Shown: one piece after another, positions 1 through 10,428 of the stretch
Position numbering within the stretch: the first letter of the stretch is position 1
Layout: each line of letters opens with the position of its first letter
Origin: a virus
Virus genome (UHGV): UHGV-0062899
Reading direction: 5' to 3' (one strand)
Length of the DNA: 10,428 nucleotides
Notes under the pieces: model-generated
Database searches by the model: none
What the model saw: only the letters and a program-made list of their open reading frames with translations
Told to the model about the DNA's origin: nothing
Program-made: the position numbers and the translations under genes

Positions 1-1132
1 CCGCCCACCACTGCATCATTTCTCTGCGCTTATCGAAATACTGAGCATGGTTGTATATTCCGCGCACAGATCCTCCGTTGGCATGTGCCAGTTGCACTTC
101 AATAGCGTCAGCAGGCCATTCGTGCTCGTTCATAATCGTGCTGAATTCATGCCTGAATCCGTGACCGCTTTCCAGACCTTCATAGCCGATTTGTTTGATC
201 ACAAGCAGTACCGCGTTCTCGCAGATTGGCTTCTTCTTATCGTTGCGACCGGCAAAAACAAACTCTGATACTGGTTTGGTGATTGAGCTTAGCGTAGTGA
301 GAAGTTCAACCACCTGGTCTGACATAGGAACCACATGAATTTTGCGTCCCTTCATCACACTGGCGTCGATGGTGATAATCCTGTTTTCAAAATCGACGTT
401 CTTCCATAGCATGGAACGAAGCTCTTTTGTTCTGAGGGCTGTGTAGCGTAAAACTTTGGTCGCAATGAGCGATACGATGCTTCCTGAAAATGTTGCCAGT
501 GCTTTGTTAAATGCCGGGATCTGGTCTGCAGGAAGAAACGGGAAGTTTTTCTTGCGGTATCCCTTCATGGCGTCAGCAAGGTCAGGTGCCGGGTTATATT
601 TAGCCCTACCAGTGACAATAGCGTAACGGAAAACCTCTCCGCATCTTCTGCGGGCTTTATTTGCTCGCTCCATTGCACCGCGATCTTCAAATCTGCGGAT
701 TACTTCCAGCAGTTGCATCGGCTCAATCTCCTGAATTTCAAGGCCGCCGATGATAGGTAAAATGTCGTCATCAAACATTTTTGCAAGTTCAGTCGCATAC
801 CCTACTGACCATACTTGCTTCTTGTGCTCGTACCATTCCTTGTAAATCGCACTAAAGGAATTGTTGTTAGACGAAGCCTTTTTCGCCTTTACCGGATCGA
901 TGCCAACCGAGATGTCTTTCCTCGCAGTCCATGCCTTATCCCTTGCCTCCTGCAAAGTCATTAGCGGATATTTTCCTACGGTCAGGATTTTCTCCTTACC
1001 GTCAATCTTGTAGCGAAGCTGCCATACCTTTTTCCCGGATACAGGGACATAAAGGTACAGGCCATTACCATCGAGAAGGCGGTATGGTTTTTCTTTCGGC
1101 TTTGCTGCTTCAATCTGCTTAACAGTGAGCAT
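1..1132 (-). CDS. int: P4-type tyrosine integrase, partial (C-terminal end beyond window start)
   Basis: Minus-strand frame open from ATG at 1130-1132 to the window edge; absent from the ORF track because it runs off the end. Translation starts MLTVKQIEAAKPKEKPYRLLDGNGLYLYVPVSGKKVWQLRYKIDGKEK, the arm-binding N-domain pattern of P4/CP4-57-type integrases. Near the window start it reads HGFRHEFSTIMNEHEWPADAIEVQLAHANGGSVRGIYNHAQYFDKRREMMQWW, giving the H-x-x-R box and catalytic Tyr region. About 377 codons are present; the last ~30-40 are missing. Confidence 0.9.
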   Translation of the reverse strand, partial: MLTVKQIEAAKPKEKPYRLLDGNGLYLYVPVSGKKVWQLRYKIDGKEKILTVGKYPLMTLQEARDKAWTARKDISVGIDPVKAKKASSNNNSFSAIYKEWYEHKKQVWSVGYATELAKMFDDDILPIIGGLEIQEIEPMQLLEVIRRFEDRGAMERANKARRRCGEVFRYAIVTGRAKYNPAPDLADAMKGYRKKNFPFLPADQIPAFNKALATFSGSIVSLIATKVLRYTALRTKELRSMLWKNVDFENRIITIDASVMKGRKIHVVPMSDQVVELLTTLSSITKPVSEFVFAGRNDKKKPICENAVLLVIKQIGYEGLESGHGFRHEFSTIMNEHEWPADAIEVQLAHANGGSVRGIYNHAQYFDKRREMMQWWA

Positions 1133-1477: not shown

Positions 1478-1711
1478 TTACAGCGTTTTTTCCTGGTGGC
1501 TGATCGGGAACTTGTCCGGTGGAAGGGCTTCAAGGGTATGTGATGGCAAATCGGGACGGTTAAGCGTGCAGTAAATCTCTGTCATAGAGATAAACGTCAG
1601 GCCACACTTAAGGTTCTGGCACTGATGATAGCTTTTTCTTACCAGGTCGCTGAGTTCAACGCTGGTTCTTGTCTTCGCCGTTGCATGGCATTGAGGGCAA
1701 CGCATAGCCAT
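1478..1711 (-). CDS. Ogr/Delta-family zinc-finger late transcription activator (77 aa)
   Basis: MAMRCPQCHATAKTRTSVELSDLVRKSYHQCQNLKCGLTF has the C-x2-C-x22-C-x4-C spacing and the RTS / YHQCQN motifs of P2 Ogr and P4 Delta. GAGGAG Shine-Dalgarno sits 8 nt upstream of the ATG. Confidence 0.85.
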   Translation of the reverse strand: MAMRCPQCHATAKTRTSVELSDLVRKSYHQCQNLKCGLTFISMTEIYCTLNRPDLPSHTLEALPPDKFPISHQEKTL

Positions 1712-1779: not shown

Positions 1780-2817
1780 TTAACGCTGATCGTTACCCCA
1801 GATAATCCCTTCAATCAGGCATCCCTTGCCGTAGTCTTCGACCACATAGGCGTTATTCCACGAATCATAGGTTGAGACGCGGTTAAATTCCGGTTCTTCC
1901 GAGATTTTGCGGCGGTGTGTTCCTGTTTGCCAGTACAAAGACAGATTATCAAGCGAAGTAACCAGCATCGCATTTTGAGGAAAGAACGGAATTGGGCAAA
2001 CGGGAAGCCCTCCGATCTGACGGTTCTCATTTTGTAATGCTAAAGCGAGCAACTCTTTATTTGGTGTCACTCCAAGATTATTAACAAAGGGATAATACTT
2101 TCCTGTAATCAATGAGAGATTACAAATAACAACAAGATCTGAATCCCCGGTGTGCCACGGATCTAATAATTCCTGATATGCCTCCATCGTCAGAGAGTCA
2201 ATAGTACCGTAATCCCCGCTGGACTCGATAATATTGGCGTTATTGCGGCGACTGACCGATACACCATTAACCACGCGGGCTGAGGCATTTCGCCGCCACT
2301 TTTCTAACCAGCCGGTATTAACATCCTGAAGCAACGGGTTAGCAGTAATATCTGATTTAGCCGCATGGTGAGTGCCATAAATGCCAGTCAGTATTACATC
2401 CAGTGCCTGACGGCGATAAATCTGGCTCTCCATATGCCCGAAGAAATTATCAAGGCCCGCCCACTGATCCAGTTTCTCATAAGAAACATAGGTATCAGTA
2501 TTCACCTGCTCACAACGGTATCGGTCAGTCTCTGCTGTACAACCTTGTACGGGCTGGCGTGCCTCTGTCGTTGAGTTGTTCGTACTGGACAGCGGTACAG
2601 ATGTAAGCCCGATCGACTCTTCTTCCTGCTCGTCCACTTCCAGAATATTTATCTGTTTAAGTAAATCTGCGCTTTCCTGCATCTTATCAACAATAGTTTG
2701 CGATGCAGATGGTGTAAGTGAAAAGGAAATCCCATCCAGCTTTGAACTGTTCAGCTTATTTTGTGATGCCTGCAATAAGCACCATGCATCATATTTTTCT
2801 CTGGTGCTGTTTTTCAT
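1780..2817 (-). CDS. P2 gpN-family major capsid protein homolog (345 aa)
   Basis: Conserved blocks match my recollection of P2 gpN along the whole length: MQESADLLKQINI, RQP, RYRCEQVNTDTY, NPLLQDVNTGWLEKWR, SGDYGTIDSLTMEA, DPWHTGDSDLVVI, GKYYPFVNN, LDNLSLYW, THRRKISEEPEFNRV, YVVEDYGKGCLIE. Length is close to gpN (about 357 aa). GGAG lies ~10 nt upstream of the ATG. Confidence 0.75.
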   Translation of the reverse strand: MKNSTREKYDAWCLLQASQNKLNSSKLDGISFSLTPSASQTIVDKMQESADLLKQINILEVDEQEEESIGLTSVPLSSTNNSTTEARQPVQGCTAETDRYRCEQVNTDTYVSYEKLDQWAGLDNFFGHMESQIYRRQALDVILTGIYGTHHAAKSDITANPLLQDVNTGWLEKWRRNASARVVNGVSVSRRNNANIIESSGDYGTIDSLTMEAYQELLDPWHTGDSDLVVICNLSLITGKYYPFVNNLGVTPNKELLALALQNENRQIGGLPVCPIPFFPQNAMLVTSLDNLSLYWQTGTHRRKISEEPEFNRVSTYDSWNNAYVVEDYGKGCLIEGIIWGNDQR

Positions 2818-2854
2818 ATAAAAAACTCCATTGATGGTATGAATTTAATCAAGA

Positions 2855-3592
2855 CTATTTTCTGAATGGCTCAATCCCCGCCGCCAGTCTCTTCTTATAA
2901 TCCATATCAGAGCGTGCTTTAGATTCCTGAATTGGCGAAGGACTGTTATTTAACGCATGGTTAATACTGCCAGACAATGCACCGGGGAAAAATGCCAGTA
3001 CAGGATCGCTGAAAAGACTACTGTCAGCATCACTCAATAATTCACGTACAACCGTTCTGGAGTCAACGCGAAGTAACTTCATAAATTCATCTGATAATAT
3101 TCTTTCTGCATCACTGGTGTTTAATCCTGCCAGAGAATAAAGCCCAATGACGACAGACAATCGCTCACCAACCAGCGCTCTGAGGTCGTCTTTAAGAGAC
3201 TGGAGAAAAGAATCCGCAATCACTGACGAAAGTTTAAAATAAGCCTCTTTCGTCTGGCGTGCCTGGCTTGCGGTTTGAATCCGTAGATCAAGCACCGTCA
3301 GGCTCTGGGATTCAATCAACTCCTGGATTTTTTGAAGCTTTACCATCACCTGCGCTGCGGACAGTGCCGCACCATCTGTTTCCGCACTTTCAACGCCTCC
3401 GTTCCTGAGCAACGCAAGCCCCCAGTCACCGGCACTATGGCCCGCGTTTGACTCCACTTCTATTTTTCGCTTTGTCTCGCTCAGGTTGGCAAGCACCTTC
3501 TCTTCGTCTGAAAGAGACTTATAGGCACGGTCAAATAGCTCTTTCTGCTGCTGGTAACTCACGAGTAATGCCTGCATGTTGTTTTGTGTCAT
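2855..3592 (-). CDS. Alpha-helical protein, possibly a Sid-like external scaffold / capsid size-determination protein (245 aa)
   Basis: Real-looking ORF forming an operon with the two genes downstream. It is rich in L/A/E/Q/S helical segments. Its size (245 aa vs 244 for P4 Sid) and position upstream of an Ogr/Delta-like gene fit Sid, and a segment SAGDWGLALLRNGGVES loosely matches what I recall of Sid. Functional call is tentative. Confidence 0.45.
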   Translation of the reverse strand: MTQNNMQALLVSYQQQKELFDRAYKSLSDEEKVLANLSETKRKIEVESNAGHSAGDWGLALLRNGGVESAETDGAALSAAQVMVKLQKIQELIESQSLTVLDLRIQTASQARQTKEAYFKLSSVIADSFLQSLKDDLRALVGERLSVVIGLYSLAGLNTSDAERILSDEFMKLLRVDSRTVVRELLSDADSSLFSDPVLAFFPGALSGSINHALNNSPSPIQESKARSDMDYKKRLAAGIEPFRK

Positions 3593-3747
3593 CGTCCTGC
3601 ACCTTGTGATTATTGCGATGGGAAAATGATTGCAGGAAAAATAAATCCAGTCGCACCGTTAAGGTTGTCAGGGGTGTACTACACCTATAAGCATCATTCG
3701 TCCCGGACGGTTTGCGCAGATAATGCAGACAGGCCAAAGGAGGAACT

Positions 3748-3957
3748 ATGCCCACATTACCCAGAAATAACAGGTCGGTGCTGAAATCACTGAGGATCCC
3801 CAATGAACTGGATCAGTACATAGTGGCGATGAGCAAGCGAAGTGGTGCGAGCTATTGTCGTTGCCTGATCGAACTGGCCGGTGCGGGTCTGCTGGCTAAA
3901 GGGATCGGGCGAATAGCCGTTCCTGAGATCGATTCCTGCCGGAAACATCGAATATAA
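3748..3957 (+). CDS. Small ribbon-helix-helix-like DNA-binding protein (69 aa), candidate regulator
   Basis: AAGGAGG Shine-Dalgarno 4-5 nt upstream of the ATG. KSLRIPNELDQYIVAMSKRSGASYCRCLIELA fits the beta-strand/helix/helix pattern of Arc/MetJ/CopG-type proteins. It is the only plus-strand gene and is divergent from the morphogenesis operon. A GATAAT -10-like hexamer lies at 3719-3724. Confidence 0.55.
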   Translation: MPTLPRNNRSVLKSLRIPNELDQYIVAMSKRSGASYCRCLIELAGAGLLAKGIGRIAVPEIDSCRKHRI

Positions 3958-4126
3958 CCCCGCCCAGCCCGTACGAGCGGGTGTATTACACATCCAGCCG
4001 CATACGCTCATATGGTACAGATCTGCCCTTGAATCCTTCACGATCTAGCCTGATGGGTGCCGTTCCCTTCAAAAAAATTGATGCATTAACACAAAAAGAT
4101 GTGATCAACTACCAGATGCAATATAA

Positions 4127-4160
4127 GCCTCTCAGAGCCACGCTGAGAGGTGTTTTCATT
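4127..4160 (+). terminator. Rho-independent terminator (plus strand)
   Basis: GCCTCTCAG-AGCCACG-CTGAGAGGT: a 9-bp stem with terminal G-U and 7-nt loop, followed by GTTTTCATT. It lies 170 bp downstream of the RHH-like gene. Confidence 0.5.
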
Positions 4161-4253
4161 ATCCACCTTCCTGCATTACCCATCTATAAAACGCATCACA
4201 TCAAGCCGGAGAATAATCAGGATATGCCATCCTGTCTCACCTCTCAGCGCGCG

Positions 4254-4281
4254 CTTGTTCCCCCGCCTCGCCCGCACGCAG
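4254..4281 (-). other. cos-like site (P2/P4/186-type cohesive-end sequence)
   Basis: Minus strand reads GGCGAGGCGGGGGAACAAGCGCGCGCTGAGAGG. The first 12 nt equal the start of the P2/P4 19-nt cohesive end as I recall it (GGCGAGGCGGGGAAAGCAC), and a CGCGCTGA block follows as I recall for P4. A chance 12-mer match in this window is improbable. Confidence 0.5.
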
Positions 4282-4589
4282 AAAGCCCGCTTTTTTGTGC
4301 AAATGTGCAGTCCGGCCAAAGCCGTGCCCCGTCTGGGCTGGAGTGGCAAAAGTACCATCAAAAAAATTGTGCATTAGCGTGCAAATTTGTGCGGTGATTT
4401 TGCAGCGATCATTTTCACCTTAAAAAGAGCCAAACTCCGGCTGCGCCCGGGCCAGTTATGCACGCTGTTTTCGTGTTGCACAATGTTGATTTATTGCCCT
4501 CGGTGCACGCTGATTTGAAAGTGAAGTGTGAAAAAAGGGTTAACAGAAAAAGAGCTGTTTTACTGAAAAACTGAGGGGAGGTACGGAAG

Positions 4590-4860
4590 TCGGTTACAAC
4601 GGTTACGGGGGTGAAATAATATGCTTAACTCAATGATTTATATTAATTAAATTTGTAACCTTTGTGAGGTTACAAAAGGTTCCATTAAAGTTACACCCAA
4701 TAAAATCAATCAGTTAAATATCTAAGTTGTAACTTTAGATAAGGTTACAGAGTAACCCGATCGTAACCCGGTTGTAACTTTTCCAAGTTGGTGAAAATTA
4801 CATATAAATCAATATAATATATTTATATCTTTACTTTGTAACTTTTGTAACCCGTTTCCG
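4590..4860. repeat. Iteron array (about 12 copies of GGTTACAA/TTGTAACC, both orientations) around an AT-rich core; putative replication origin or integrase arm sites
   Basis: Copies at 4592-4599, 4601-4607, 4653-4660, 4668-4675, 4689-4696, 4736-4743, 4743-4750, 4751-4758, 4761-4768, 4772-4779, 4836-4843 and 4846-4854. An AT-rich stretch at 4795-4835 lies among them. The array is non-coding and sits just downstream of the int2/primase operon. Confidence 0.6.
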
Positions 4861-5149: not shown

Positions 5150-6130
5150 TCAGAGGCTGATTCCGCCAGAAAGGGGATTGAGTGAAACGGCGTGTTGCAG
5201 ATAGTCAGGCGCAACATGCGCATAAACCATCGTCTGCTGGATACTGGCGTGACCAAGAATTTGTTGTAAGGCGATAATATTGCCCCCGTTCATCATGAAC
5301 CAGCTTGCAAACGTATGGCGAAGCACATGCGTAGCCTGCCCGCGCGGCAGGTCCGGCTTAACCTCCCTAAGCCGCCCGCAAAAGGCTTCATAGTCAACGC
5401 TGAACAGCGGCCCGCAATCGCGGGTTTTGATCTCTTTTTCCAGTTCATCCGATATTGGGATCGTGCGCCTCTTCCCGTTTTTGGTTTTAAGAAAAGTTAC
5501 GCGTCCGTGGTTAATCTGCTCTCCCCGCAGTGTGCTGCCTTCTCCCCAGCGTGCGCCGGTGCTGAGGCACAAAAGAGCAACACGGCGATCGTCACCTGTA
5601 AGGGTATTCAATAATCGACTGATTTCCGATTTAGTAAGGTAGGTCATTGCTGCTGGTTTCTCCCTCAATGGCTCCAGCCCTTTACAGGGGTTATCAGCCT
5701 TGAATTCATCCAGTTTTATCAGGGCGCTGAACATACCCGAAAGGCGATATATATCACGGTTGACGGTGGCCGTGCTGATCCCTGAATCCAGCCGCTCGCT
5801 GCGATGCTGCGCGATGATTCGTTTAGTCAGCCGGTTAACTGCCGGGTTGCCCAGGGCTCTGATCGTTTTATCTAGGTGTCGTTTTTCGGCGTTTCCGTTC
5901 TCCAGCGTCCGGCCATACAGCAGCCACCAGATGTTTAGCAGCTCGCTGAGAGTACGCCGATCGGTGCTGGCGCCCAACCACTCTTTTTTATCGGCATTCG
6001 CCATAACATACCGTTCAAAGAGCGCTGCCTCCTGCTTTCTGTCAAAAATCCTGCGAAAGCGCTTACCGCTGCGCCCTCTGGCATAAATATCGACTTCATA
6101 ACGCCCGTCAGCCCGTTTTTTAATGGTCAT
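5150..6130 (-). CDS. int: P2-Int-like tyrosine recombinase, complete (326 aa)
   Basis: N-terminus MTIKKRADGRYEVDIYARGRSGKRFRRIFDRKQEA matches my recollection of P2/186-type integrases. Catalytic set is complete: LSTGARWGE (Arg I), KTKNGKRRTIPIS (Lys), HVLRHTFAS (His/Arg II), LGHASIQQT (His III), MVYAHV (Tyr). GAGGAA Shine-Dalgarno 8 nt upstream; start is 16 nt after the primase stop. Confidence 0.85.
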   Translation of the reverse strand: MTIKKRADGRYEVDIYARGRSGKRFRRIFDRKQEAALFERYVMANADKKEWLGASTDRRTLSELLNIWWLLYGRTLENGNAEKRHLDKTIRALGNPAVNRLTKRIIAQHRSERLDSGISTATVNRDIYRLSGMFSALIKLDEFKADNPCKGLEPLREKPAAMTYLTKSEISRLLNTLTGDDRRVALLCLSTGARWGEGSTLRGEQINHGRVTFLKTKNGKRRTIPISDELEKEIKTRDCGPLFSVDYEAFCGRLREVKPDLPRGQATHVLRHTFASWFMMNGGNIIALQQILGHASIQQTMVYAHVAPDYLQHAVSLNPLSGGISL

Positions 6131-6145
6131 ACTATTGTTCCTCTG

Positions 6146-8815
6146 CTACTGAGCGGCCGGCACTTTAAAAATCCAGCATTTCACCTGCTCAGGCTCTTTC
6201 GGGCCAGCCTCTCCACGCCCCTGATTTGCCAGTCTGGAAACCTCACTTCTTACCGTCTTCTGGCCCGTACACGGCCGCATACGCCCGTTTTTCAGGTAAT
6301 CCTGAATTTCTTTCGCCGGGGGAATATTTACACGCTGCATAGCAGCTATACGCATCAGGTGAGGGAAGTTAATGGCGATCTCGTCGCGATTCTCTTTCCC
6401 AAAATGGTTGACGCCGAAACGCTCCAGGCTATTCAGATAATCAAAGGCATCCCAGAACTCACGAACCACAGGGATATCCGCTTCCAGCGATTTAACCCGC
6501 TCCACCGCCATCACAGTAAGCTGTTCACAGGTGCGATCGAGGCGTTCTGCGGGAATATCCAGAACACAGGTCAGCGCCCTTACACATGCAATCATCTGGG
6601 CATGATTTTTGGCAATTCGGATATGACGAATTTCAGAGTGTTGTTCCAGCCTGATTTTTTCGGCCTCATACACCTCCTGAATAATCGACAATACTGCGCT
6701 TTCCCTGCATACCGCCCGGATCATAAAACCAGATACCTGATCGACCGGCAGACGCTCAAGGCGTTCAGCCGCCGCCCTGGTCAGCGATGACTGACGGCGT
6801 TTATCCGTAAACACATGGATAATACGTTCCAGTATCGCAGGTGAGGCGTTAACGGTGGCATTCTGCGCGATGACAATGCTGCCCCTGAATGGCGGCTCTC
6901 TGGTTTCATTGTTGTTGGTCTTAACACCAATCGCCCGTAATCCGCGCCCGTTGTAGAGCGGTTTTAGCTCATCGAAGTCAAAGCCGCGCAGCTTCTTCGT
7001 GTCTTGGGCGCGATCGCCTTCAAGCAGCACGACGGGAAGGTTTGAGACCTGGGCGAAGTTACGATAAATGCCCGCAACAGAACCCTTTGAAGGGTCAATT
7101 CCCTCATAGCTGTCCCTGCCACAGAGCCGCCAGAGAAAATCAATCAGCGTGGATTTACCTGTTCCCGGTTCACCGATAATCTCCAGAAAGGGAAAGCTGG
7201 CCTGCTGTTCGCGTATCTGTTCAACGAAGAATGTTCCCAGCCAGAATGCCAGCGCGACATAGCCATTTTCACCAAAAGCCGTCCAGATATCATCGGCCCA
7301 GCCTGACGAAAGCGAATTATCATCAGAATTGATATTGATTAACGGGGATCGGCTCAGTGTCTTGATATTCATCCCACCAATCTCAAAGTAATCTTCGCTG
7401 TTCAAGGAGTAGACCTTCCCGTTATGTATCGCCAGCTTATTGAATACCCATGCCCGCCAGTCCCTGTTATACCCAATAAAGTCCTGCGTCCTGACCTCTT
7501 TGATCCGGGGCAGATCCTTTTTAATCAGACCATCGAGCTGCTGGCTGGTTCCGGTATAGAGCGCACCTTTTGCCACATGGAGGAGACGCTTTTTAAACTC
7601 AGACGCAGAAGAGATCTGCCCCGCGGTAAAGGAGTCTTTCACTGCGGGTGTATTGCCTGGAAAGGCGATGCGAAAATAATACCAGGACTCGTCTGTAACT
7701 TCTGAACGCATAAAATACAGCGGTGCGGGGTGACAATTGGCTATTTCCTTAATTGCTCCAGACTCTTTCAATGCAATACTTCTGGCTTCACGTTCATCAT
7801 TAACTTTTTTATCGTTAAGGATACGCTCAACGGCCTTCATATGGCGCTCAATGTCCAGCTTAAACCAGTACACGCAGTTCCCGTATTCGAAGTGAAACTC
7901 AGGGCGTTCATTATGTTCAAACATCCGAAGCGCCTTATCTCGGGCGCTTTCCGCCAGCAACAGATCGCCGTAATAGCGGTACTCTTTCTGGTGTCGTCTG
8001 GTCAGCTTTCCGGTAAGGTGGAGATCGTTCCAGTCAGCTTTATTGCTCCCCTGTGAAGGAAGTGCGGCAACGGCTTTCCAGCCTTGTTCACGGCTCCGCG
8101 CCACATGGCGACGTATGGCTGTTTCCCCTGCTTTCCCATTGTCCAGCGCCCAGACAAGAAACGGCTTTTCTTTGCCCTGGAATTGTTCAGCAAGCGCTTT
8201 AAGCGCGGCTTCCGGGTAGTTTCCGGCAGTCATAATGGAAACGGCAGGGGTGCCGTTCTGATAAAGGCTAATGGCGTCAAAAATCCCCTCAGTTAGCCAG
8301 ATACAACTGACTTTAGCCAGATCCAGCGCTGGCGGAACCCACCAGTGACCGGCGTACTTACCGTGGAAGTTAGCCTTTCGATCAAAGCGTTCTGGCTTGT
8401 CGATAATCCGCTCCCACCAGATACCATCAGACAGGGCAAAGCGAACCGTTGCGCTTCCCATGCCGCCCTTATGGTAGCTTTCCTGCGTATAGCAGCCCTT
8501 TAAGCAGGTAGTATCCAGCCCTCTGGCTTCTCTCAGATAGGCTTCCGCAGCGGCAAAAGGCTGCTCAGGCGTGCTCTCATAGCGATCTGACCATGAGTTA
8601 AATAATTCAGGATAGAGCGATTTTACCGACAGATCAGCGCCGCAATTATTTTCCCGGCCACAGCGCAGCACCCAAGGATTTTCCATGCTGGTAAAGAGTT
8701 CTTTCTTGTTACATTCAGGGCAAATACCTGAGCGCAGATAGCCGTTCTGCTCTTTAAACTGGTAATCATGCACCAGTCGTTTTATGATTTCGGGGCGTAG
8801 ATCTTTTCTGTTCAT
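6146..8815 (-). CDS. Bifunctional primase / P-loop NTPase replication protein (zinc-ribbon + Toprim + Walker A/B), P4 alpha-like (889 aa)
   Basis: N-terminal C-x2-C-x16-C-x5-C zinc ribbon (CPECNKK...RCGRENNC); Toprim-like motifs IWLTEGIFDAISLY and LVWALDNGKAG; Walker A GEPGTGKST with downstream VVLLEGD (Walker B-like). AAGGA Shine-Dalgarno 7 nt upstream of the ATG. Confidence 0.85.
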   Translation of the reverse strand: MNRKDLRPEIIKRLVHDYQFKEQNGYLRSGICPECNKKELFTSMENPWVLRCGRENNCGADLSVKSLYPELFNSWSDRYESTPEQPFAAAEAYLREARGLDTTCLKGCYTQESYHKGGMGSATVRFALSDGIWWERIIDKPERFDRKANFHGKYAGHWWVPPALDLAKVSCIWLTEGIFDAISLYQNGTPAVSIMTAGNYPEAALKALAEQFQGKEKPFLVWALDNGKAGETAIRRHVARSREQGWKAVAALPSQGSNKADWNDLHLTGKLTRRHQKEYRYYGDLLLAESARDKALRMFEHNERPEFHFEYGNCVYWFKLDIERHMKAVERILNDKKVNDEREARSIALKESGAIKEIANCHPAPLYFMRSEVTDESWYYFRIAFPGNTPAVKDSFTAGQISSASEFKKRLLHVAKGALYTGTSQQLDGLIKKDLPRIKEVRTQDFIGYNRDWRAWVFNKLAIHNGKVYSLNSEDYFEIGGMNIKTLSRSPLININSDDNSLSSGWADDIWTAFGENGYVALAFWLGTFFVEQIREQQASFPFLEIIGEPGTGKSTLIDFLWRLCGRDSYEGIDPSKGSVAGIYRNFAQVSNLPVVLLEGDRAQDTKKLRGFDFDELKPLYNGRGLRAIGVKTNNNETREPPFRGSIVIAQNATVNASPAILERIIHVFTDKRRQSSLTRAAAERLERLPVDQVSGFMIRAVCRESAVLSIIQEVYEAEKIRLEQHSEIRHIRIAKNHAQMIACVRALTCVLDIPAERLDRTCEQLTVMAVERVKSLEADIPVVREFWDAFDYLNSLERFGVNHFGKENRDEIAINFPHLMRIAAMQRVNIPPAKEIQDYLKNGRMRPCTGQKTVRSEVSRLANQGRGEAGPKEPEQVKCWIFKVPAAQ

Positions 8816-8854: not shown

Positions 8855-9118
8855 TCACTCTTTGTCTTCTTGTACAGCATGTCCCAGATATTTGTCACAA
8901 ATCCCCAGGCGTTTAACTTCCTGTAGTACTGATGAAATATCTTCACTGATATAACTGAAAATATCCGGTATCCATAAGAGTGGCATCGCGTTAGCTTCAC
9001 ACTGGCGAATATGTAAATGCATCTGAAATGCGACATTCCTCGCGCGATTCAGTTTGTGATAATTCTCAATACTGAGGTGAGACGGATTAACACTCTGAAT
9101 ATGATTACTTGTTGTCAT
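8855..9118 (-). CDS. Hypothetical protein (87 aa)
   Basis: AGAGGA Shine-Dalgarno 5-6 nt upstream of the ATG; same strand as the replication operon; no family recognised. Confidence 0.5.
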   Translation of the reverse strand: MTTSNHIQSVNPSHLSIENYHKLNRARNVAFQMHLHIRQCEANAMPLLWIPDIFSYISEDISSVLQEVKRLGICDKYLGHAVQEDKE

Positions 9119-10266: not shown

Positions 10267-10307
10267 AGTCACCACCGGAGTTTCCACGCTCATGATTGGT
10301 GGTGACA
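10267..10307. promoter_or_regulatory. Dyad symmetry element upstream of the small-ORF cassette; candidate operator
   Basis: AGTCACCACC (10267-10276) and GGTGGTGACT (10298-10307): perfect 10-bp inverted arms with a 21-bp spacer, ~30 bp upstream of the g1 start. A near-palindrome TCATCATAATGATGA (10231-10245) covers the start codon. Confidence 0.3.
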
Positions 10308-10428
10308 CTGACAGGGGTGGAAATACCGGCGTACAAGGAGACCGGCCAGCCCGAAAGCTGCCCTGCCAGAGCCACCATTGATACTGCGCGGATCTGCTCC
10401 GCTGAATATGGTGGCACTGATTTAACGA

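Follow-up and report, generated by a model that had tools for sequence, protein, structure and literature searches.

A P2-family major capsid gene behind a Sid-like gene in a P4-like satellite of Escherichia coli

P4 is the textbook example of a satellite that has no structural gene and reshapes the capsid of its helper from outside. Capsid homologs have been described in other satellites: SaPIbov5 encodes Ccm, a capsid homolog that resizes the helper capsids (PMC8569155), PmCI172 carries a capsid homolog (PMC6092414), and the phage-inducible chromosomal islands that form capsids (cf-PICIs) encode a whole head and packaging set, namely capsid, portal, protease, connectors, TerS and TerL (PMC10085698). 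Here we describe a stretch of 10,428 nucleotides from the UHGV virus genome UHGV-0062899 (the window, whose positions are used throughout), which contains the greater part of a P4-like satellite of 11.6 kb inserted at a tRNA-Arg gene. At 1780-2817 on the minus strand it encodes what is, judged from its sequence, an intact full-length P2-family major capsid protein of 345 amino acids (aa), behind the gene of a probable remote homolog of the P4 external scaffold Sid.

The element resembles P4 in its size, in its integration at a tRNA gene by a P4-type integrase, in having AlpA, a C4/CI RNA, Epsilon, an Ogr/Delta activator and a P2-family cos, and in having a Sid-like gene at a similar distance behind a TGT-N12-ACA dyad, the signature of Ogr/Delta-activated P2/P4 late promoters; as in P4, portal, terminase and tail genes are absent. 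It differs from P4, which has no gpN-family capsid gene, in carrying a full-length one, in lacking Psu and in having a Sid that is only remotely related, a single-domain Ogr-like activator where P4 Delta has two domains, a primase of a different family from P4 alpha and an extra internal tyrosine recombinase of 326 aa. Furthermore, its late operon reads away from cos, which is of the SEN4/SEN5 and not of the P2/P4 type. It shares with SaPIbov5 and PmCI172 the encoding of a homolog of the helper capsid protein (HK97 fold), which would likewise be tied to small capsids, in a satellite without portal or terminase large subunit, but these two belong to the PICI family, have other hosts and helpers and lack an external scaffold partner of the Sid type; moreover, the pentamer role of Ccm has been shown by cryo-EM, whereas the role of the capsid protein described here is inferred from genes. 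The cf-PICIs also have their own capsid protein and take at least the tails from the helper, but our element has only the capsid protein and the Sid-like scaffold, and, lacking portal, protease, connectors and terminases, it is not a cf-PICI. Finally, the head module of P2-like phages (Q-P / O-N-M-L, as in P2 and SEN5) has a capsid protein that aligns over its full length with the one in the window, and the cos of SEN5 is near-identical. In these phages N follows the scaffold/protease gene O, precedes terS and lies by the portal and terL genes (79 of 80 loci), whereas in the element the capsid gene follows the Sid-like gene and portal, terL, O and terS are absent.

The literature searched (including PMC8628076, PMC10085698, PMC13586616, PMC13612085 and a capsid-piracy review) contained no account of a P4-like satellite with a gpN homolog, in agreement with a first-pass annotation of this DNA, made from its letters, which knew of no such case. 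The same annotation had spoken of a different hijacking strategy, and this would be new for P4-like elements, but precedents exist elsewhere in SaPIbov5 Ccm, PmCI172 and the cf-PICIs. What is new, as far as the literature searched goes, is the combination of a Sid-type scaffold and an own helper-type capsid protein in a P4-like satellite, satellite capsid homologs as such being already known from other systems.

The capsid gene and the borders of the element

The 345-aa protein had been assigned to the gpN family across its length, and the profile matches and the alignment with the solved gpN bear this out. It matches Pfam PF05125 (Phage_cap_P2) with an E value of 6e-99 and 331.7 bits (cutoff 27), residues 9-338 covering positions 2-327 of the 327-position profile, it passes the equivalog cutoff of NCBIfam TIGR01551 (236.4 bits against 219.65) and it falls in phrog_70 of PHROGs. 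Furthermore, the solved P2 gpN (7jw1_A) is collinear with its residues 1-341 (E 8.8e-79). Aligned over its full length, it is 40-49% identical to P2 gpN and to the capsid protein of SEN5, a P2-like phage of Salmonella, with 49% for SEN5. A GGAG ribosome-binding site can be read 8 nt 5' of the capsid ATG, and the gene starts 37 bases after the end of the open reading frame (ORF) at 2855-3592, while the ORF at 1478-1711 begins 68 bases 3' of it; the gene thus lies, as the annotation had placed it, between a 245-aa helical protein and an Ogr/Delta-like gene, all three on the minus strand. Phage and satellite capsids have 42 invariant alignment columns in common, all of them kept in the satellite proteins. 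The P2 protein is cleaved after residue 31 (PMC7552001), and the context of the gpO cleavage site (xF-S/T..PS, with a hyphen at the cut) is kept in the branch of the window, where ISF-SLTPS compares with KKF-TVEPS. The shared invariant columns and the cleavage-site context are compatible with the use of the gpO protease/scaffold and the portal of a helper.

The left border of the element is the core of an att site, a 22-nt direct repeat at 1293-1314, whose partner, 11,627 bp further right and thus beyond the window, is contained in the 3' end of the tRNA-Arg gene; in the annotated 48-kb chromosomal locus around the element (L001) the two copies lie at 20293-20314 and 31920-31941 and are 95% identical over 22 bp. 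The element is thus 11,627 bp long, compared with 11,624 bp for P4. The window is 99.5% identical to the chromosome of E. coli KCJ3K291 (NZ_CP054407.1), where core E. coli genes flank the element: yfdC and mlaA to one side, an AraC-family regulator and a pseudogene of alcohol dehydrogenase to the other. According to the annotation of this locus, the element is inserted between the tRNA-Arg gene and the IntS gene of another prophage remnant, of P22/Sf6 type, and the similarity of the window to IntS/attP phages stops at 1313. The IntS integrase itself (P22/Sf6/HK620-type) is intact in a decayed prophage (window 1-1132, minus strand; L001 9929-13338) at the same tRNA-Arg site, and the satellite therefore sits in tandem with an older prophage remnant.

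Profile hidden Markov models of the P2 type found no portal, large or small terminase or gpO in the 48-kb locus, so that the portal-terL / gpO-N-terS setting of a head module was not found around the capsid gene over these 48 kb, and neither the element nor the 19 kb to its left and right contain tail genes. The earlier statement that terminase, portal and tail genes are missing was therefore correct for the element and 19 kb on each side, and so was the assignment to a satellite-type element. A complete P2-like prophage is ruled out by the att borders and by the absence of portal, terminase, gpO and terS, the flanks being core genes.

The Sid-like protein and the late operon

The gene at 2855-3592 (minus strand) encodes a protein of 245 aa whose size and position had been described as Sid-like in the first-pass annotation. 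Several convergent lines of evidence, none of them individually significant, make it a probable remote homolog of Sid. The protein has no family match in Pfam or NCBIfam and one weak match in PHROGs, to the function-less family phrog_3548 (E 0.002); phmmer with the single sequence against the PDB returned nothing relevant and no Sid match, and exact-peptide scans of GTDB representatives and IMG/VR, as well as tblastn against phage records, gave nothing. Word-indexed searches gave few members of the family, and HMMER, run in full over 1.84 billion representative proteins, gave 13 clusters at 50% identity, all of them of 219-270 aa. With the alignment of this family, AlphaFold2 predicted an all-helical protein, with a pLDDT (predicted local distance difference test) of 87.3 and a pTM (predicted template-modelling score) of 0.73; the family alignment was needed for a confident model, since the single sequence gave a pLDDT of 47. 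When this model was compared by Foldseek with 350,542 PDB chains, P4 Sid (7jw1_E) ranked first (probability 1.00, E 0.03), with template-modelling scores of 0.56/0.58 over 242 columns, and P4 Psu (3rx6) ranked second. A fold search of BFVD with the model returned coiled-coil noise only.

The family profile pointed in the same direction. In hhalign it matched P4 Sid with 73% probability (E 3e-5), collinear over 115 columns that include the invariant W and G of the family (the DDW...GGV stretch of Sid) and an AYxxAH motif, while the probability was 1.7% against Psu and 0.1% against gpO; a search of the PDB with the family profile reached Sid at an E value of 5.5 only. The 245-aa protein is therefore not the internal scaffold gpO, which was ruled out for want of similarity. 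When Sid is added to the family alignment, the most conserved motif of the family, PSPxQ, aligns with TPAQRK at Sid 219-224, the residues that contact the sir loop of gpN (Kizziah et al., PMC7552001). The Sid/Psu fold family is characterised by a length of about 244 aa, a long body formed by a hairpin of helices and a helix at the C-terminus that docks on this loop, compared with 245 aa and an all-helical model for the protein in the window.

On the other side of the capsid gene, the ORF at 1478-1711 (minus strand) encodes an Ogr/Delta-type zinc-finger late-gene activator of 77 aa (Pfam Ogr_Delta, E 1e-15), which is 33-36% identical to each half of P4 Delta and is single-domain like Ogr. A motif search found a TGT-N12-ACA dyad at 3666-3683, a candidate Ogr/Delta site of a Psid-like promoter; it begins 91 nt upstream of the Sid-like ATG and is the sole match in the 10.4-kb window, where about 1.8 would be expected by chance. 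In related elements the dyad starts at -91 to -95 from the Sid-like gene (L002, L009, L013, L020, L007 and L008; -122 in L019), and in P4 the same dyad starts at -90 from sid. Given this P4-sid-like distance, the Sid-like and capsid genes, possibly with the Ogr gene, can therefore be read as a late operon; all three may be driven by this candidate Ogr/Delta-responsive promoter.

Related elements and the history of the capsid gene

Small elements with differing replication modules carry the same Sid-like/capsid/Ogr set in Pantoea, Rahnella, Citrobacter and E. coli. Three loci of Pantoea stewartii (L002-L004) have CI, gpA, an integrase of 326 aa, a Sid-like protein of 219 aa, an 86-aa ORF, capsid and Ogr; a Rahnella locus (L009) has a P4-type integrase, ASH, gpA, an Int_N recombinase, a small Terminase_5 protein, the Sid-like protein, a 79-aa ORF, capsid and Ogr, and a contig assembled from the Sequence Read Archive (SRA; L013) has similar gene content. 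In Citrobacter freundii (L019) there are a P4-type integrase, ASH, a primase, Int_N, Ogr, the Sid-like protein and a capsid protein of 427 aa with an N-terminal extension, and an E. coli locus (L020) has the same content with a capsid protein of 450 aa. Three further SRA assembly contigs (L007, L023 and L024) are close variants of the element in the window. Compared with the Pantoea element, the internal integrase of the window is 66%, the Sid-like protein 24% (E 5e-19), Ogr 46% and the capsid protein 52% identical. When the alignment of satellite capsids was used to scan GTDB species representatives, 80 loci were obtained, of which 79 have the portal-terL/gpO-N-terS module where the contig allows; the single exception is Pantoea stewartii, with the Sid-like gene and no portal, terL, gpO or terS. 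Some near relatives of the capsid protein are found in complete P2-like head modules (P0005, P0007, P0012 and P0013).

When 43 capsid proteins were placed in a neighbour-joining tree, those of satellites grouped in one clade (7/7, 97% bootstrap), deeply diverged from all the phage capsids sampled. Compared between the window and L023/L024, the capsid gene differs at 43-68 nucleotides and has a ratio of nonsynonymous to synonymous substitution rates (dN/dS) of 0.05-0.08; the ratio of the Sid-like gene is 0.07-0.12 and that of Ogr 0.05-0.17, while the internal integrase has 0.04 and the primase 0.06. The conserved gene set, the monophyly and the low dN/dS indicate that the capsid gene is a long-standing and selected component of the satellite lineage. 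We therefore regard it as very improbable, and already disfavoured, that the gene is a relic of some P2-like prophage in decay, or was captured by chance not long ago and has no role, as could be thought from its rarity in E. coli (1 of 5,426 genomes) and from the IntS prophage remnant that it adjoins. Against such an origin stand the intact ORF with its low dN/dS, the same gene set in several genera with different replication modules, the monophyly of the satellite capsids and their divergence from the sampled phage capsids, and the position of the gene within an att-bounded 11.6-kb element under a conserved late-promoter motif.

Seven positions are specific to the satellite clade, with a residue that is present in at least six of the seven satellite capsids and in at most 10% of the 36 others, and four of these seven lie, by a post hoc count, inside the 42-residue sir loop, gpN 183-224 (hypergeometric p ~0.005). 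This loop is the surface of gpN on which Sid docks (PMC7552001). Together with the conserved C-terminal motif of the Sid-like proteins, the sir-loop residues suggest that the Sid-like protein and the satellite capsid protein are a co-adapted scaffold-subunit pair.

Several features of the related elements are also worth recording. In the Citrobacter and E. coli loci L019 (10738-12021) and L020 (10717-12069) an N-terminal extension of ~90-135 aa replaces the usual N-arm of the capsid protein (427-450 aa); a domain fused to the protein and similar to delta or to a scaffold is one possible reading of it. L009 (8332-8658, minus strand) and L013 (249-554, minus strand) encode a protein of 101-108 aa homologous to the N-terminal domain of gpP, the large terminase (E 1e-12 to 1e-19 against its profile); this Terminase_5-domain protein is a candidate packaging-redirection factor of these satellites, and its gene is absent from the element in the window. 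Also absent there is a conserved ORF of 78-86 aa between the Sid-like and capsid genes of the Pantoea, Rahnella and L013 elements (L002 9732-9992, L009 9753-9992, L013 1731-1967), whose C-terminus (..VDY / ..AEY) resembles the ends of some gpO scaffolds (..VDY, ..ADC) and, very weakly, might point to scaffold mimicry. In two Pantoea stewartii genomes a 186/P2-like prophage adjoins the small capsid-bearing element (L003 and L004, 13191-21050), and the two may be a helper-satellite tandem.

Satellite functions, likely helper and a possible route of assembly

The core set of P4-like satellites defined by Moura de Sousa & Rocha comprises int, alpA, alpha, epsilon, delta, sid and psu. The element has most of this set but not all of it: no ORF of the element matches the Psu family in Pfam, NCBIfam or PHROGs, and for Sid and alpha the relationship is no more than remote or one of analogy. 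From the tRNA side, the order is P4-type integrase, AlpA, an Ash/Icd-like gene, a C4-family RNA, several small ORFs, an Epsilon homolog, an 889-aa Toprim primase/helicase, the 326-aa Int_N recombinase, an AT-rich block of hexamers, cos, a divergent 69-aa ORF and the Sid-like, capsid and Ogr genes; the genes discussed here are all on the minus strand, apart from the divergent ORF. The P4-type integrase that had been announced does belong to the same element (52% identical to P4 Int), but it lies ~1.6 kb past the right end of the window, and the integrase within the window is the different Int_N protein. AlpA (PF05930, E 8e-19; L001 29729-29950) is also outside the window. At the right edge of the window, inside or beside the Ash/Icd-like gene, there is a C4-family antisense RNA, the P4 CI-type immunity RNA (10295-10382, minus strand), which matches Rfam RF01695 over its full length with 79 bits against a gathering score of 45. 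The Epsilon-like helper-derepression protein of 87 aa (8855-9118, minus strand) matches PF25738 (Derepression, E 6e-20) and is 47% identical to P4 Epsilon. The replication protein at 6146-8815 (minus strand) is a primase/helicase-type protein with Toprim_2/3 domains and a phrog_1139 match of 1082 bits. The alpha-like primase of the first-pass annotation is therefore present as a Toprim primase/helicase, but its similarity to P4 alpha is faint, with Toprim and Walker-A traces only and a BLASTP E value of 0.007 over 27 aa; by analogy, this Toprim/P-loop protein in the position of alpha may be its functional counterpart.

The second tyrosine recombinase (Int_N + Phage_integrase, 5150-6130, minus strand) follows immediately downstream of the replication gene in those related elements that were seen at full extent, with copies at L002 7127-8107, L009 6067-7098, L019 7095-8072 and L020 14275-15261 and another in L023. 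It is kept with a primase as well as with gpA as the replication gene, and with or without a P4-type integrase, and it could be a true integrase, a multimer resolvase or something else. Between cos and this gene lies an AT-rich block of 259 bp (4593-4851, GC ~0.37) with nine TGTAAC/GTTACA hexamers in both orientations, out of 12 in the window, where 3.5 would be expected; from its sequence it is probably a replication origin with iterons. The divergent 69-aa ORF (3748-3957, plus strand; RefSeq annotation) is conserved in the close variants L007 and L023 and has no family match in Pfam, NCBIfam, PHROGs or PADLOC, and its place is taken in Rahnella and L013 by three small genes, one of them that of the Terminase_5-domain protein. 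A known defence system was ruled out, since no PADLOC profile matched.

The cos-like site that had been noted in the element is present and belongs to the SEN5 type. When the window is aligned across the ends of the SEN5 genome, the cohesive-end sequence GGCGAGGCGGGGGAACAAG falls at 4254-4272 (minus strand), within a cos region of ~300 bp (about 4100-4402). It is one mismatch away from the left end of SEN5, GGCGAGGCGGGGGAACGAG, with homologous flanks, and blastn against phage termini pairs window 4273-4402 with the right genome end of SEN4 and of SEN5. The cohesive-end sequence of P2 and P4 is GGCGAGGCGGGGAAAGCAC, compared with which the SEN5-type cos has an extra G, and this P2/P4 19-mer is absent from the window both exactly and with up to three mismatches. 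P2-family phages with a cos of the SEN4/SEN5 (Senquatrovirus) type are therefore likely to be the helpers, and prophages with a related cos (~80% identical) occur in about 43 of 5,426 E. coli genomes. Among the E. coli strains that carry a SEN4/SEN5-like P2-family prophage as a candidate helper are TOK-001, KMi029 and MS 57-2.

We think it somewhat probable, with modest confidence, that the satellite contributes a capsid subunit of its own, fitted to its Sid-like scaffold, and forms small heads with it, and that it takes the rest from a SEN4/SEN5-like P2-family helper. Such a helper, with the same type of cos, would be derepressed by the Epsilon-like protein or would infect the cell, and its Ogr and the Ogr/Delta activator of the satellite would activate each other's late genes. 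The satellite capsid protein would then be built into small shells (P4-sized, probably T=4) under the matched external scaffold, and the helper would provide the portal, the gpO protease/scaffold, the terminase that cuts the satellite cos, the head-completion protein, the tail and lysis. A T=4 head measures about 45 nm, compared with about 60 nm for T=7. A Sid-docking surface co-evolving with its own Sid could make the redirection of size independent of the capsid allele of the helper, including sir-type resistance. We favour these shells directed by the own Sid because of the invariant columns, the cleavage context, the pairing of sir loop and Sid motif and the P4-like length of the element, which fits a T=4-sized head.

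Helper gpN is co-expressed during the helper cycle, as is established for P2 and P4. The satellite protein could then join gpN at specific positions of mixed capsids, at pentamers or at Sid-bound hexamer positions, and bias them to the small size. The interfaces of the subunits could be compatible, given an identity of 43-55% and the retention of all the invariant gpN positions, and there is the example of Ccm, which assembles together with the phi12 capsid protein and fills the pentamers of T=4 SaPIbov5 procapsids (PMC8569155). However, the element also has a Sid-like size determinant, and in P4 Sid suffices to resize pure gpN shells (PMC7552001); moreover, the clade-specific changes are in the Sid-docking loop and not obviously at capsomer interfaces, and the N-terminal extension of ~90-135 aa in the L019/L020 branch hints at a more autonomous assembly. 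Mixed capsids are therefore, in our opinion, an unlikely outcome, though one to be taken seriously.

A role outside the particle seems improbable to us. The capsid homolog would in that case be a dominant-negative subunit, a decoy that poisons or diverts the helper heads and so protects the host population or favours the satellite. Satellites commonly disturb the morphogenesis of their helpers, and the acquisition of capsid homologs has been put forward as one way in which pirate elements suppress phage multiplication (authors of PMC8569155). Nevertheless, the gene would be co-transcribed with that of the Sid-like scaffold, its product is full length with every fold-critical position kept, beyond what a poison subunit needs, the element has the cos and the P4 size expected of a packaged element, and there is no match to known defence-system profiles.

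Some points weigh against the favoured assembly of small shells from the satellite's own subunit. The model is built on genes, from which particles, expression and transduction are all inferred, and this applies equally to the entry of the capsid protein into particles and to the small capsid size. The clade of satellite capsids comes from neighbour-joining as its one tree method, and the sir-loop enrichment was found post hoc on seven positions and is uncorrected for relatedness. The whole window is present in one of 5,426 complete E. coli genomes, a rarity that also counts here. No second cos of this type was found in the host genome NZ_CP054407.1, so that no cognate helper is resident there; one further place in this genome matches the DNA of the P2/SEN5 large terminase, and from this match a P2-family prophage is probably resident. 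Moreover, helper gpN is also made in the helper cycle, and the satellite protein may either replace it or be mixed with it.

Elements of this kind will be mis-called by prophage and satellite finders in which a P2-family capsid gene counts as a hallmark of phages, or in which sid and psu profiles are obligatory. The element offers a natural system for asking how an external scaffold is matched to its shell subunit, at the interface of the sir loop and the Sid helix, and it opens the further questions of whether an own subunit counters escape mutations of the helper and of how satellites gain structural genes. With a Sid-type scaffold and a separately evolving capsid protein side by side, a P4-like lineage of this kind shows that no sharp line divides remodelling from capsid-forming satellites. 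More tentatively, and as a possibility that we would not yet call probable, there may be a P4-like lineage in Enterobacterales with a long-kept private capsid protein and a co-evolved private Sid-type scaffold, whose shell is made by the satellite only and whose portal, protease, terminase and tail are stolen. If this is true, such a lineage would have a built-in answer to sir-type resistance of the helper and would be an evolutionary and mechanistic intermediate between P4 remodelling and the cf-PICIs.

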